Positions 13,518 through 17,984 of a DNA stretch of 32,000 nucleotides are shown here, piece by piece. Positions within the stretch are counted from its first letter, which is position 1; the number at the start of each line of letters is the position of its first letter. Origin of the DNA: Sinorhizobium meliloti. GTDB taxonomy: Bacteria > Pseudomonadota > Alphaproteobacteria > Rhizobiales > Rhizobiaceae. A model generated the notes under the pieces. It was not told the origin of the DNA. It made no database searches and worked only from the letters and a program-made list of their open reading frames with translations. The DNA is taken from contig NZ_JAGIOS010000001.1 of NCBI RefSeq assembly GCF_017876815.1, positions 2,280,001-2,312,000 of the forward strand, in the 5' to 3' direction. A program made the translations under genes and the position numbers.

Positions 13518-14135
13518 TCAGGTGATTGGAAGACTGGTATCAAACACCGCACCATGCAGACGCATCAACTGGTCCGTTCTCGCCGGGTCATCTTCGAACC
13601 GCTGTCCCGGCAATGTCACAAGATCACTCGATAAGACACGATCGAACAGGGCGTAGCAAACCTCGCCGTTATTGTGTCGGGACTTATAAGCAAGACCATC
13701 CAGATCCGGATAATCCTCATGCAATGCGAGCGCGAGCGCACGAGATGGTGCGTAGTCTGCCCCAGCACTGATGGACGCATCTACGCCGTGAAAGAGTAGC
13801 CCTTCGTCCATTAACTTTGCCAGAACTAATTGGCGATGCAGTCGACGTGGTGTCCACATGCGCTCTTCCACGAACGCTCGCCGAACGATGCGGTTTGCAG
13901 GCCTACGAAGAACGGTCTCAACAAATGCCCCTTCGAGGCGTTGCGCGACGTACAGAAGGCGATACTGGCCCGCAGGCGCATCGAACCGGCCTTGGGGTGT
14001 CGCACCGGGCGCCGGCCCAAAGAAGATCGCACCATGAATCTTCTGATGGACGCGGACAACGACGTCGCCCGCGTCTAATGCAGCAATTCTTAATCCCGAG
14101 GGAAAGCGGGCTGTTGGCGCAGTATAAGCGGGCAC
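13518..14135 (-). CDS. RES-domain toxin (NAD+-targeting RES family)
   Basis: Ordered RES hallmarks: GRFD (Arg), LLYVA (Tyr), FVETVL (Glu), YKSRHNNGEVCYALF (Ser). The GTG start lies 3 nt after the partner's TGA. Lower G+C than the flanks. Confidence 0.85.
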   Translation of the reverse strand: MPAYTAPTARFPSGLRIAALDAGDVVVRVHQKIHGAIFFGPAPGATPQGRFDAPAGQYRLLYVAQRLEGAFVETVLRRPANRIVRRAFVEERMWTPRRLHRQLVLAKLMDEGLLFHGVDASISAGADYAPSRALALALHEDYPDLDGLAYKSRHNNGEVCYALFDRVLSSDLVTLPGQRFEDDPARTDQLMRLHGAVFDTSLPIT

Positions 14136-14138
14136 TCC

Positions 14139-15242
14139 TCAAGCCTCGTCCATGCCAAGATAGGCTTTGGCCGCCGTTACGACTTCGCCAACGCGCCCTC
14201 CGGCAAGGATTCGCTGTGGTGTATCTGCCAAGTTCGGATCGGTGTCGATCAGAAACTGCAGCATCGACCAACGGCCGGCACCGCTGTCATCAAAGAGTTT
14301 GGTCACCTTGGCCAACCCCTCTAGCAGGCGGGTGTCGTTATCCACGGTAATGAACTGGAACTTGGGAAGAACGATTTCCGATCCGTGCATGAGACCGAAT
14401 GCCGAGCCCAACTTGACCCGCTTGTGGAGGGCCTGCCGGGTCGTGCCGAGCATCTTCGCGCCCTCAGTTAGAGAGACCCCACCGCCGGAACGATCGAGAA
14501 GAGCAGTGCTGATGTTGAGGAACCTTTGGTCATCGCTCAATTCAATCGCGCTGGTTCCTCCCTCGACCTCCGCCAAGAGATCGGCCGAGAGCTGAAACTG
14601 GTCGGCGGCGAGATCTATGTGCTTGGCAAGCTCCGAGAATGCTCGGGGCCTATCATACTGGCACAACCGCAACAGCTCGGTACGAGCCGGTGTCAACTCG
14701 GTCAACAGAACGAAAGCATCGATAGCCAACTGCTCGGCGCGTGGGGTAGGGGTCCACCTGTGCAACAGAGCTTGTCGAACCTCCCTCGAACGCGCGAGAC
14801 AGTCATCCACAATGTGCGAGTACCAGTTACGCCTTGTCTTGACGCGGTGAACCGATGAACGCTGATGCCGGGGAAGTTCGAAGTCCGACACTGATGCCTC
14901 GTGAAACGCAGCCCCCATAAGAAGTGCTGCCGAGTGGAGCCGCGAATTGAATACGAACACAAGTTTCAAGGTAGGGCTCGCCGAAACGTCAGGGAGAAGC
15001 GTCTCGCGAACGCGCATGTTCCAGTGACGAAACTCCTCACTGTCTGCCCAATGGTGGTTCAATCGCAATTGATGACCAGCCCACTTCTCAAGCCCTCGAT
15101 CCATGTCTCCTGCAGTTGGACGGTCGAATACGAGACCGGCGAGGTACTGAGAGAGTGTCTGTCCTGCTTCTCGAGCGTGCAGCTCTGCAGCAGCGCGCAC
15201 GACCGGATCTATGTCGGTCGCAGATCTTGTGTGTTCGCTCAT
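14139..15242 (-). CDS. 367-aa RES-partner protein: unknown N-terminal region (~235 aa) + Xre-like HTH + DUF2384-like toxin-binding C-terminus
   Basis: The C-terminal third has the HTH LTEGAKMLGTTRQALHKRV followed by RWSMLQFLIDTDPNLADTPQRILAGGRVGEVVTAAKAYL, resembling Xre/MbcA/ParS antitoxin C-domains. It lies immediately upstream of the RES gene. I cannot assign the N-terminal two-thirds. Confidence 0.8.
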   Translation of the reverse strand: MSEHTRSATDIDPVVRAAAELHAREAGQTLSQYLAGLVFDRPTAGDMDRGLEKWAGHQLRLNHHWADSEEFRHWNMRVRETLLPDVSASPTLKLVFVFNSRLHSAALLMGAAFHEASVSDFELPRHQRSSVHRVKTRRNWYSHIVDDCLARSREVRQALLHRWTPTPRAEQLAIDAFVLLTELTPARTELLRLCQYDRPRAFSELAKHIDLAADQFQLSADLLAEVEGGTSAIELSDDQRFLNISTALLDRSGGGVSLTEGAKMLGTTRQALHKRVKLGSAFGLMHGSEIVLPKFQFITVDNDTRLLEGLAKVTKLFDDSGAGRWSMLQFLIDTDPNLADTPQRILAGGRVGEVVTAAKAYLGMDEA

Positions 15243-15281: not shown

Positions 15282-15350
15282 GGTTGATGGTTAGGTTGAT
15301 ATATACAGTCGTAAGCGTGGTATATCAACCTCGAGCATCAAGCCATCAAC
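15282..15350 (-). promoter_or_regulatory. Promoter/operator of the RES operon: -35 TTGATA (15328-15323), 17-nt spacer, -10 TATATA (15305-15300), inside a GTTGAT/ATCAAC repeat array
   Basis: Perfect 11-bp inverted repeat AGGTTGATATA (15293-15303) / TATATCAACCT (15321-15331). Further hexamer copies at 15283, 15337 (ATCAAG) and 15345. The promoter hexamers on the minus strand lie within the dyad arms. Confidence 0.5.
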
Positions 15351-15555
15351 AGCACCTCATGGGTAGGTTCCATTCCAACAGGACAGCGTTGGCGAAATGC
15401 GCCGGCTGTTCGCCATTTCTGCAGGGTTTCTTGGCGCGGGAGCCTCAGCGGCATCCGGGATTCCGACCGCTACGCTATGGACCCGTGATTTCAAGGCGTC
15501 AGGCGTGCAGTCGCCTTGGATCAAACTGCAGACCGACTATTGGGCCGGCCCACAT

Positions 15556-17112
15556 CTAAATGCCGGATTCCGCGAGCCAGGGCCGGATGACGGCGATGTC
15601 TTCCACGCCTATTCCGTGGCCGGTATCGAGGTCGGCTTCCTCGAAATCGGCTCCGCTGGCCCTGAGCGCCGTCTTCAGTTCCGGTGCGTGTTTGCCGTAG
15701 GGATCGTCCTTGCCGGTGAGCATCAGCACTCTTGTGCCGGCGAGGTCCGGTTCCGGCGCGCTTTCGAGCGCCGCCATTGCGCGCATCATCACGGCGTTCC
15801 TGACGATGCCGGGGTGGAGAAGCAGCACGGCGGCGAGCAGGTTGGCGCCGTTGGAGTAGCCGATGAACACGGTCTTCTCCGGGTCGAGGCCGTAGCTCTC
15901 GCGCGCGCCCTCCACGAAGGCGGCAAAGGCTTCCGCTTCCGAGCGAATATCCTGCTGGTCGAATTTCGTCATCGAGAAGCGCCGGAACCAGCGCGGGAAG
16001 CCTTCCTCGGCGCTGCGGCCGCGCACGCCCAGGAGAGTCGCATGCGGATCGAGCTGATGGCCGAAGGGCAGCATATCGATTTCGTTGCCGCCGCTGCCGT
16101 GCAGCAGCACGAAGGTGCGATCGTTCGCCTTCTCCGGGCGGTGGAACCGATGGATGAAAGGAAGGTCGCGCTGCGGCACCCTGGGTTCGCCGGGCAGCGC
16201 AAATTGCGGCAGCCTGACCAGCGTTGCCGTGGGGTCGCTCGCCAGATGCGGGGGCAGGAACAGCGTCGTGCCGAGAGCATCCGGAGCTTCGTCGACGGTA
16301 AAGCCGGGCCCGTCCGTAGCGAGCTCGCAGAGCGCACCGCCAGGCTCGCGTACATAGAGCGAGAAGAAATATTTCCGGTCATGCGCATTGGTGGCGCCGG
16401 CGTGCTCCTGCTCGAGATCGGCTCTCACCGCAAGCACGGTCGCCTCATCCGGGGCGCGGAAGGCGATGTGGTCGATCGTGCCGGTGCCGGGGGCGGCACT
16501 CCAGAAGCCGCCGGCATCGCGGACATCGATCACGTCCCCGGACGAGGAAGTGAGGCGGCGGATGCTCTCCGTCGCTCCCGTCTCGGTGTAGCCGAAGTGG
16601 TTTTGAAGGAAGTGCGCCGTGTCCTTGGGTTTTTCCGTGAGCACCGTTGCGCCGCGTAAGCGGCGGATGGAGTCCGTTTCGGGGATGTCCCGGCCCGCCC
16701 AGGGCGCGGGCTCCGCAAGCGCGTTCGTTCCCACCAGCTTGACGATCACGCCGTCCGGATCCTTCAGACGCAGGACCGGTTCGCCGAATTCCTGCGAAGG
16801 GCCGGTCGCCTGGATATTGAACTTCAGCGCTCGCGTCATCCAGTAGCCGATGCTTTCGGGCGGAATGGCGAAGGCGATCTCGCTCGGCTGGCCGTAGCCG
16901 ACCCGGCCCGGAGAGCCGTCCTCCCAGACCAGGAAACTCACGAGAGAGCCCGGCGAGCCCGCGGCGTCGCCGTAGAAGAGATGCAACTGATTGGGATCTT
17001 CGTAGCCGCCGGTCCGCTTGACGAGGTGCAGCCCCAGGAAGCCGACATAGAAATCGACATTGGCCTGTACCTTGCGGGCGATCAGGGTGATGTGATGAAT
17101 GCCGCTCGTCAC
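15556..17112 (-). CDS. Fusion protein: Mhq-type VOC ring-cleaving dioxygenase (N) + phospholipase/carboxylesterase-family alpha/beta hydrolase (C)
   Basis: The N-terminal ~310 aa are paralogous to 11686-12639 (GIHHITLI...FYVGFLGLHLVKRT...LHLFYGD). The C-terminal part has VLLHGSGGNE, GYSNG (nucleophile), GKDDP and TGHGI. GTG 17112 follows GGGAGGA and overlaps the SDR stop (GTGA). Confidence 0.88.
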   Translation of the reverse strand: MTSGIHHITLIARKVQANVDFYVGFLGLHLVKRTGGYEDPNQLHLFYGDAAGSPGSLVSFLVWEDGSPGRVGYGQPSEIAFAIPPESIGYWMTRALKFNIQATGPSQEFGEPVLRLKDPDGVIVKLVGTNALAEPAPWAGRDIPETDSIRRLRGATVLTEKPKDTAHFLQNHFGYTETGATESIRRLTSSSGDVIDVRDAGGFWSAAPGTGTIDHIAFRAPDEATVLAVRADLEQEHAGATNAHDRKYFFSLYVREPGGALCELATDGPGFTVDEAPDALGTTLFLPPHLASDPTATLVRLPQFALPGEPRVPQRDLPFIHRFHRPEKANDRTFVLLHGSGGNEIDMLPFGHQLDPHATLLGVRGRSAEEGFPRWFRRFSMTKFDQQDIRSEAEAFAAFVEGARESYGLDPEKTVFIGYSNGANLLAAVLLLHPGIVRNAVMMRAMAALESAPEPDLAGTRVLMLTGKDDPYGKHAPELKTALRASGADFEEADLDTGHGIGVEDIAVIRPWLAESGI

Positions 17113-17984
17113 GGTTTGGTCCTCCCTGCCGTCGTCCCGGCGAGAAACGACTGGAAGGCCTCGCCGTAGTCCGGGTGCCAGCGTGAAAGCGGCGGCCGGT
17201 TCTCGACGATGTCTCCCGCTGCCCAAAGGATCCGCTTTTCATCCGTCGGACGCGCGACCTCGTTGTCGGGGCAAAGGATATAGAAGTCGCCGCGGGCAAG
17301 GCCCTCCATCATGAAGTCCACCGTCTGTTCCGGCGTCCAGGCGCCGGCCGGCTTTTCCGTGCGTCCTTGCGCGGTGAGGGACGTGTAGACGAAACCGGGG
17401 ATCAGCAGATGCGCATTGACCTTGCAGTCCTCGGTATTGCGCAGTTCGTGCTGCAGGGCCTCGGTGAAGACCTTCACGCCCGCTTTCGAAAGGTTATAGG
17501 CGGGATCGCCGGGCGGCGTGGTGATGCCCTGTTTCGAACCCGTGTTGATGATGAGCGCCGGCTGCCCGTGGGCAATCATGGCCGGGGCAAAGATGCGCGA
17601 ACCGTTGATGACGCCCCAGAGATTGACGCCGATCACCGCTTCCCAATTTTCGAGCGGGCCGAAGAGGGAACTGCCTGGCTGGACGCCGGCATTGTTCATC
17701 AGCACATGGACGTGGCCGAAGCGCTCGCGCGTCGCGCGCGCCAGGGCCACGAGGTCGTCCGCCAGCGACACGTCGGTCTCGATCGCAGCGACATCGCCGG
17801 AACCGCCCGGAGCCGCCTTCGCTACCTCGGCTGCCGCTGCCTGCAACTTCTCACCGCCGAGATCCGCGAGCACGACCTTCATTCCGAGGCTGGCGAAGCG
17901 CCGTGCCGAGGCAAGGCCGATGCCCGAGGCGGCGCCGGTCACGACGGCGACGTTGTTCTTGTCGATAGCGGAGTAGGACAACAT
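17109..17984 (-). CDS. Short-chain dehydrogenase/reductase (SDR)
   Basis: VTGAASGIG, NNAG and YNLSK motifs. ATG 17984 is preferred (AGGA upstream) over the TTG 17993 used by the track. Confidence 0.9.
   Translation of the reverse strand: MLSYSAIDKNNVAVVTGAASGIGLASARRFASLGMKVVLADLGGEKLQAAAAEVAKAAPGGSGDVAAIETDVSLADDLVALARATRERFGHVHVLMNNAGVQPGSSLFGPLENWEAVIGVNLWGVINGSRIFAPAMIAHGQPALIINTGSKQGITTPPGDPAYNLSKAGVKVFTEALQHELRNTEDCKVNAHLLIPGFVYTSLTAQGRTEKPAGAWTPEQTVDFMMEGLARGDFYILCPDNEVARPTDEKRILWAAGDIVENRPPLSRWHPDYGEAFQSFLAGTTAGRTKP

Follow-up and report, generated by a model that had tools for sequence, protein, structure and literature searches.

What kind of system do a RES-domain gene and the gene for a 367-amino-acid (aa) partner form when they follow one another on the minus strand of the Sinorhizobium meliloti chromosome? 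The pair lies in a 32,000-nucleotide (nt) stretch of DNA (NCBI RefSeq assembly GCF_017876815.1, contig NZ_JAGIOS010000001.1, positions 2,280,001 to 2,312,000 of the forward strand), which we refer to as the window and on which all window coordinates below are based. RES toxins act as potent destroyers of NAD+; what they do physiologically is debated, and RES enzymes have just recently been linked to phage defence. The original prediction for this locus, made from the sequence alone, was that the antitoxin of a RES toxin had acquired a large extra module. We think it likely that the module is a type II toxin–antitoxin (TA) system in which a RES-family toxin is paired with an expanded antitoxin. 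The system type is a known one; the long-partner variant is uncharacterised and widely distributed.

The two coupled minus-strand genes and the TGA-GGA-GTG junction that had been described for this locus were reproduced at exactly the same coordinates (Table 1). The gap of 3 nt at this junction indicates probable translational coupling of the partner and RES genes. Both open reading frames (ORFs) and the upstream operator are intact in the window copy, and the module forms a ∼2-kb stretch of lower G+C content (55–60%, compared with 62–69% in the flanks).

The identity of the downstream gene as a member of the RES family, as first proposed, was borne out by a hidden Markov model check. Pfam PF08808 (RES) matches residues 27–173 of the 205-aa protein far beyond chance (E 1e-16; 61.8 bits against a cut-off of 23.2); it is the sole Pfam match in this protein and is carried by all of the RES homologues listed. 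The motifs quoted earlier are present in order: GRFD at residues 49–52, LLYVA at 60–64, FVETVL at 71–76, and YKSRHNNGEVCYALF at 150–164. When the AlphaFold2 (AF2) model of the protein, with a predicted local distance difference test score (pLDDT) of 90.6, was compared with known structures by Foldseek, MbcT (6fkg) was the best match (E 1e-6, template modelling (TM) score 0.61–0.68), followed by the Pseudomonas putida RES protein, NatT, VPA0770, and diphtheria toxin. Searches of PDB-chain sequences with the RES protein, including those with its family profile, gave no meaningful match, and we therefore place it in a divergent RES subfamily.

Across 31 members of this RES family, residues R28, H30, R50, F51, D52, Y62, E73, Y150, N156, D165, and R166 are invariant. 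R28, R50, Y62, and E73 run in the same order as R27, R47, Y58, and E69 of MbcT, which are needed for full toxicity of that protein (PMC6436930), and from this order the two sets would appear to correspond one to one. At the serine of the RES motif (S152), family members have S or A, and the equivalent serine is dispensable in MbcT. Like MbcT, the enzyme most probably breaks NAD+ down by phosphorolysis, and it would be toxic when free.

The partner has a single significant fold match. In Foldseek comparisons of its AF2 model (mean pLDDT 75), the top match was Rv2175c of Mycobacterium tuberculosis (2kfs; probability 1.0, TM 0.61, 120 columns), and the helix-turn-helix (HTH) region also resembled excisionase-type winged helices and HTH_17. 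Among the comparisons with PDB entries, only that of folds was informative; a PDB-sequence search with the partner family profile gave no meaningful match. The Rv2175c_C model reaches the window partner itself only below threshold (E 0.039), and it matches 43 of 48 close relatives; in the wider family of 85 representatives, 20 match Rv2175c_C at E<=1e-4 (best 3.9e-8) and 9 match Rv2175c_wHTH (best E 2e-7). The assignment of an Rv2175c-type winged HTH (wHTH) followed by a C-terminal domain is solid at the family level. The C-terminal motif quoted earlier, RWSMLQFL...AAKAYL, is located at residues 324–362. The earlier comparison with Xre/DUF2384 antitoxins needs correction here: the HTH is of the winged type known from Rv2175c, HTH_17, and excisionases and not an Xre (cro/C1) HTH.

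A link between this C-terminal region and known RES partners comes from a 238-aa protein encoded on pTiChry5, which carries PF23124 and the "Xre-MbcA-ParS middle domain" PF23125 (E 7e-29) and falls in a family with over 1000 clusters to which UniRef gives the name "antitoxin Xre/MbcA/ParS-like." An hhalign comparison of the window family with the pTiChry5 partner family aligned residues 252–360 of the window partner with residues 134–235 of the pTiChry5 protein (probability 98.1%, E 1.2e-13). Judged by this profile alignment, the last ∼110 aa of the window partner share homology with the M and C domains of Xre/MbcA/ParS-like RES partners, and the N-terminal ∼250 aa do not.

The first ∼250 aa of the partner matched no known family, and a search of the full-length protein against Pfam, NCBIfam, and PADLOC models gave nothing significant; a weak EAD2 match (one protein, E 0.022) was regarded as noise. 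The largest part of this region is a conserved, all-helical central domain whose helices span residues 90–231 (pLDDT mostly 80–97) and in which F98, R101, F113, Y141, H161, W163, P165, D197, and R200 are invariant. This domain (residues 89–235) had no match in Pfam, NCBIfam, or PDB sequences, or by Foldseek against PDB and BFVD; a weak match to the ArsR-like HTH_20 lies inside it at residues 185–212. It is preceded by a linker with pLDDT below 50 at residues 40–88, where the alignment is indel-rich and little is conserved. At the N terminus, a segment weakly resembling a ribbon-helix-helix (RHH) protein has AF2 helices at residues 13–25 and 30–39. The Pfam NikA-like model is matched by 13 of 18 family N termini (best E 2.2e-4), the N-terminal profile matches Arc repressor (1b28) at E 0.095, and the segment is found in only a subset of the wider family.

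The partner–RES pair is conserved well beyond S. meliloti. The close partner family consists of 88 clusters, nearly all of them 380–390 aa long and alphaproteobacterial, and an exhaustive library search with the partner profile found 1026 representatives at E<=1e-3, 117 of them at E<=1e-30. Most long relatives (280–480 aa) match the profile over positions ∼104–388, corresponding to the central domain, wHTH, and C domain, and their N termini vary. Of 24 related genome loci, 22 have a RES gene directly 3' of the one for the partner, and the spacing in most of these is either a gap of 2–3 nt or an overlap of 4 nt. The pair is also found on plasmids and in regions resembling integrative and conjugative elements (ICEs).

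More distant RES toxins, 25–40% identical to the one in the window, are present on plasmids of Rhizobium, Mesorhizobium, Methylosinus, Agrobacterium, Sinorhizobium, Bradyrhizobium, Sphingomonas, Rhodococcus, and Chroococcidiopsis. All nine that were sampled have upstream partners of 201–273 aa, annotated as "hypothetical" or "HTH domain-containing," and one family of 238-aa partners is already in Pfam as the N and M domains PF23124 and PF23125. Because of these plasmid relatives, we conclude that oversized partners are the rule in this RES clade and that the size of the window partner is not unique. The proposal that an antitoxin had gained a large extra module is supported, in that nothing in MbcA, ParS, Xre, or NatR corresponds to the N-terminal ∼250 aa, but long partners are common in the clade. 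The wHTH and C domain are the sole segment common to RES-linked partners of 201–476 aa, where similarity is detectable, and for this reason we tentatively assign both toxin binding and DNA reading to them.

Other arrangements were seen among the loci collected in this survey. On an IncFIA/IncR plasmid of Klebsiella pneumoniae (locus L042, 2225–3618), the gene for a partner-like protein of 214 aa precedes a RES-like ORF that lies on the opposite strand and converges on it (RES profile E 1e-9), a layout that differs from the co-directional coupled pairs elsewhere; the related locus on a Leclercia plasmid (L041) has no RES ORF. At another locus (L035, 1461–2326), two short paralogues made up of a wHTH and a C domain are arranged in tandem with overlapping stop and start codons, and there is no RES gene nearby. 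Several loci from metagenome-assembled genomes of Acidimicrobiia (L025–L031) contain a 172–184-aa ORF that matches only positions ∼257–350 of the partner, with no RES gene detected nearby; these ORFs are probably actinobacterial orthologues of Rv2175c. One candidate partner–RES fusion (P0332) turned out to be a degraded locus truncated by a transposase.

Natural variation of the pair separates the two genes. Many S. meliloti strains carry exactly this partner sequence on the chromosome. When six loci with an intact partner were compared (L054–L059; 99.3–99.9% nt identity), five carried independent knock-outs of the RES gene and the sixth had substitutions only. The knock-outs comprise 1-bp deletions at codons 41, 49, and 69 and two different insertion sequences (ISs) near codons 103 and 148. 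The two ISs interrupt RES in separate S. meliloti strains (L055, 3764–4879, and L056, 3628–4681; window equivalents ∼13690 and ∼13826) and carry transposase genes of the HTH_38 and HTH_23/DDE_3 types. The partner gene is 1.8-fold longer than the RES gene, yet it is intact beside these knock-outs. In other genera, too, the RES gene is truncated or lost beside an intact partner (L013/14, L045/46, and L047). The only partner frameshift found, at codon 220 in Ensifer SEMIA 134/135, is paired with a RES frameshift at codon 140, and a broken partner beside an intact RES gene was not seen among the loci compared, a small sample selected for diversity. This asymmetry of RES loss and partner retention is what a toxin–antitoxin relationship predicts. 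It also looks like the behavior of an ordinary addiction-type TA module, contrary to the earlier suggestion that the locus was something other than a plain addiction module.

A second line of evidence comes from the DNA upstream of the partner gene, which contains a perfect 11-nt inverted repeat, AGGTTGATATA-N17-TATATCAACCT (15293–15331). The conserved core of this region is GGTTGATA-N19-21-TATCAACC, accompanied by additional half-sites such as CATCAACC; in the 32-kb window, GGTTGATA-N15-25-TATCAACC occurs 1 time as compared with 0 expected by chance. Half-sites number 19 per kb within the 160 nt 5' of the partner gene, as against 0.47 per kb elsewhere. In related loci, one or two copies of GTTGAYR (a second upstream copy is present in many of them) are separated by 19–21 nt from two copies of YRTCAAC that are 12–14 nt apart, and this layout is kept at 35–55% protein identity. 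Each of 29 loci contains the pattern GTTGAYR-N15-30-YRTCAAC-N3-9-YRTCAAC a single time, always shortly before the partner gene. Several short-partner systems are preceded by an inverted repeat of a related type, GTTGAC or TTTGAC, whereas the pTiChry5 and Methylosinus loci have none, and the GTTGAYR half-site was not found upstream of the pTiChry5 partner gene. These repeats suggest that the shared wHTH reads the half-site. Inside the window repeat, TTGATA-N17-TATATA has an arrangement that we take to resemble a rhizobial sigma-70 promoter.

These features could also be read in another way, as a domesticated or non-canonical pair whose partner serves mainly as a transcription factor, perhaps with further targets, and whose RES protein does not act as a poison in its own right. 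There are precedents for such behavior: NatRT (PMC11535050) and Legionella GndRX (PMC12457610) both depart from classic TA modules. NatT is not toxic by itself. The up to three DNA-binding-like segments of the partner, the widespread occurrence of wHTH and C domains without RES, and the constant chromosomal location of the module across many S. meliloti strains would all be in keeping with it. However, the repeated and independent knock-out of RES, and not of the partner, fits a harmful toxin better, both genes are broken together in the single lineage with a partner frameshift, and the operator pattern occurs just once in the window. We consider this interpretation improbable.

The TA interpretation itself has several observations weighing against it. 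The S. meliloti loci displayed favor dissimilar neighborhoods and so over-represent broken RES genes; most contigs have an intact one. A consensus promoter scanner did not flag TTGATA-N17-TATATA. PF09722 (DUF2384) gave no match to the window partner at E<=1 or to its close relatives at E<=10. To our knowledge, Rv2175c itself is a kinase-regulated DNA-binding protein and is not known as an antitoxin. Finally, many proteins of 110–150 aa consist of the wHTH and C domain alone, and such short stand-alone relatives had no RES neighbor in 4 of 4 genomic contexts examined. Because of this, we conclude that the wHTH and C domain are not exclusively an antitoxin and also work outside TA modules, and the idea that the 130–146-aa relatives are ancestral small RES antitoxins was dropped.

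The PF09722 result bears on the earlier claim that only the last ∼130 aa of the partner are antitoxin-like. PF09722 is also not among the 25 of 32 families listed for 48 close members, and Xre-like HTH models match just 3 of these 48, weakly. Weak PF09722 matches do appear in the C region of distant relatives (P0340, 7.5e-4; the partner at L043, 1.4e-3). The claim is thus upheld, for the C-terminal ∼110–130 aa, by the hhalign comparison with the pTiChry5 family, and the direct check against PF09722 did not support it.

The window copy of the toxin raises a further concern. Codon 97 (13845–13847) encodes R within a predicted beta-strand; other S. meliloti strains have L or P at this position and the family consensus is L. 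Because R97 is unusual, the window copy may be attenuated. Codon 151 (13683–13685) encodes K where the family consensus is R. Taken further, R97, found in the window variant only, could have crippled the toxin (L97R) and left a locus with intact ORFs and no present function, and RES decay is indeed common at the S. meliloti locus. We regard such a remnant as very unlikely, given that the ORFs and the operator are intact, that all family-invariant residues of catalytic type are kept, and that K151 occurs in another family member.

The original prediction favored a sensor-coupled abortive-infection device. In a triggerable defence system of this type, the partner N terminus would sense a phage or stress cue and free the RES enzyme, and NAD+ would collapse and infection be halted, with an outcome like that of aRES proteins. 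RES-mediated NAD+ depletion has been shown to be anti-phage, though in stand-alone fused proteins (bioRxiv 10.64898/2026.01.28.702374), and the aRES architecture, with PF18870 and RES in one protein, is absent at the window locus. No phage phenotype was seen with NatRT-type RES TA systems (PMC11535050). Neither window protein had a match in PADLOC-DB 2.0 at E<=1, and no homologues were found in phage and viral collections. The window flanks consist of housekeeping genes (ABC permeases, C-N hydrolase, glyoxalase, FMN reductase, SDR, and IMPase). Related loci on plasmids and in ICE-like regions do adjoin integrases, TraF, ArdC, and other TA genes, a context that fits mobile addiction modules as well as defence. 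The defence reading is favored by some related loci on mobile elements that have TA, anti-restriction, and AAA_21 genes around them. Based on these results, the proposed abortive-infection device finds no backing at this locus, and we judge the defence interpretation to be unlikely.

The only hint of an input function is the variable slot at the partner N terminus. In a 476-aa relative (P0216), an HSP20/alpha-crystallin domain is fused ahead of the central domain, and in a 465-aa relative (P0229; locus L053, 3001–4398), DnaA_N occupies this place; a RES gene follows immediately in both cases, and L053 carries the GTTGAYR/YRTCAAC operator pattern. FYDLN_acid and tail-collar domains were found at the N terminus of one representative each. 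These fusions are singletons among the 85 representatives, which argues against the defence interpretation, although the sporadic HSP20 and DnaA_N fusions keep a regulated or triggerable system alive as a minority hypothesis. In its boldest form, the N-terminal ∼250 aa would be an input module that gates RES-dependent NAD+ depletion on a cellular or phage cue, making the pair a two-gene, sensor-gated switch for defence or stress, unlike both the classical RES-Xre addiction modules and the single-protein aRES; there is only a small chance that this is correct.

Under the preferred TA reading, the 367-aa partner would be made first, with its translation coupled to that of the RES toxin. The wHTH and C domain of the partner would bind and block the toxin and may also read the GTTGAYR half-sites. 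As the putative promoter is overlapped by three to four of these half-sites (Table 1), we propose autorepression of the operon by the partner, either alone or together with the toxin. The additional ∼250 aa could add oligomerisation, extra DNA contacts, or both, giving a higher-order repressor complex on the multi-site operator, and it may also carry lability or an input that releases the toxin.

Table 1. Features of the partner–RES module and its upstream region, in window coordinates (distances are relative to the partner ATG)
Feature	Position	Strand	Basis or remark
Partner gene, proposed antitoxin and autorepressor	14139–15242	-	ORF with ATG start, 367 aa
RES-domain toxin gene, predicted NAD+ phosphorylase	13518–14135	-	ORF with GTG start, 205 aa
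Gene junction TGA-GGA-GTG	14133–14141	-	partner TGA at 14141–14139, RES GTG at 14135, 3-nt gap
Distal forward half-site GTTGATG	15344–15350	-	GTTGAYR copy at -108
Proximal forward half-site GGTTGATA, left arm of inverted repeat	15323–15330	-	GTTGAYR copy at -87
Putative -35 element TTGATA, inside GGTTGATA	15323–15328	-	predicted
Putative -10 element TATATA, 17 nt downstream of TTGATA	15300–15305	-	predicted only
Reverse half-site TATCAACC, right arm of inverted repeat	15294–15301	-	YRTCAAC copy at -59
Second reverse half-site CATCAACC, 12 nt downstream of TATCAACC	15282–15289	-	YRTCAAC copy at -47
RHH-like N-terminal segment, residues ∼8–40	15123–15221	-	weak
Variable, predicted disordered linker, residues 41–88	14979–15122	-	pLDDT <50 and poor conservation
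Conserved all-helical central domain, residues 89–235	14538–14978	-	AF2 helices and invariant residues
wHTH, Rv2175c_wHTH / Xre-MbcA-ParS "middle domain" type, residues 252–306	14325–14489	-	Foldseek, hhalign, Pfam
C-terminal helical domain, Rv2175c_C / Xre-MbcA-ParS C-like, proposed to bind the toxin, residues 310–362	14157–14315	-	Pfam, hhalign

Databases give three lengths for the identical partner gene: 367 aa, 321 aa (from Met47), and 104 aa (from Met264 onward, including Q92MW6_RHIME); the entries are named "hypothetical." Met47 is preceded by a good Shine-Dalgarno sequence, AGGAG (codons 1–47 correspond to 15104–15242). Substitutions in codons 1–46 are dominated by synonymous changes, like those in the rest of the gene and as expected under purifying selection. 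Because these codons evolve as coding sequence and Met47 is not conserved among partner relatives, we take the 367-aa form from the ATG at 15242 to be the true product; a partner isoform made from an internal start, without the RHH-like segment, is conceivable. The 104- and 321-aa entries had suggested that the partner is truncated in most S. meliloti strains. This was rejected, as the intact 367-aa ORF is present in the DNA of every 104-aa-annotated locus compared, and the entries reflect differences in gene calling.

Upstream of the operator, a 420-aa plus-strand ORF (15397–16659) is almost wholly antisense to a 556-aa glyoxalase-domain gene on the minus strand (15556–17226) and is most likely a spurious high-GC ORF. 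The glyoxalase-domain gene is annotated elsewhere at 518 aa, and its start is uncertain.

Taken together, the survey describes a large alphaproteobacterial RES clade that lacks the textbook small Xre/DUF2384 antitoxin and has long partners built on an Rv2175c-type wHTH, with interchangeable N termini. It ties the C-terminal domain of Rv2175c, which Pfam lists as being of unknown function, to RES-toxin partners at the profile level, and it defines an unannotated domain of ∼145 aa that is present in more than 100 sequence clusters. The inconsistent partner annotations could be corrected accordingly. The precise, conserved operator and the natural S. meliloti knock-out alleles make the proposed functions directly testable in a genetically tractable symbiont.

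How does this module compare with known systems? The aRES proteins are stand-alone fusions of PF18870 and RES (300–600 aa) that are found in defence islands and have no operonic partner; their RES domain makes ADP-ribose-1''-phosphate, depletes NAD+, and defends against phage (bioRxiv 10.64898/2026.01.28.702374). The window RES protein differs from these in being 205 aa long, in having a separate, coupled partner, in lacking PF18870, and in having no defence-island context in the window. The MbcT–MbcA pair of M. tuberculosis (6fkg) has the same antitoxin-first two-gene operon, and the R/R/Y/E order is kept, but no similarity between MbcT and the window RES protein was detectable in the PDB sequence-profile search, and MbcA is a 113-aa protein without a DNA-binding domain whereas the window partner has several extra domains.

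The P. putida Xre-RES (6gw6, 9r35) and Pseudomonas aeruginosa NatR–NatT (8qnl) systems share the RES fold of the window toxin, and their antitoxins combine an HTH with a C-terminal toxin-binding domain, as the window partner appears to do. In Xre and NatR, however, an Xre (cro/C1) HTH stands at the N terminus of a small protein, whereas in the window partner an Rv2175c/HTH_17-type wHTH follows ∼250 aa of other sequence. Autoregulation in these systems involves multiple palindromic sites and higher-order complexes (PMC12204516), much as proposed for the window module.

Rv2175c (2kfs; PF21531 and PF18367) has the same order of wHTH and C-terminal helical domain as the window partner, and both of its Pfam domains match family members. 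It is only 146 aa long, and neither the central domain nor the RHH-like segment has a counterpart in it. We know of no RES gene adjoining Rv2175c.

The Ti-type partners of Agrobacterium and Rhizobium, 238-aa proteins with PF23124, PF23125, and a C domain, provide a further comparison. We found no experimental work in the literature on either this family or the window partner family. The window partner is 130 aa longer, its N-terminal ∼250 aa is unlike PF23124 or the rest of that family, and the RES toxins of the two systems are just ∼30% identical. Like the window partner, however, the Ti-type partners are encoded upstream of and coupled to a RES gene, have homologous wHTH "middle" and C domains, are longer than the classical antitoxins, and share an alphaproteobacterial mobile-element host range.

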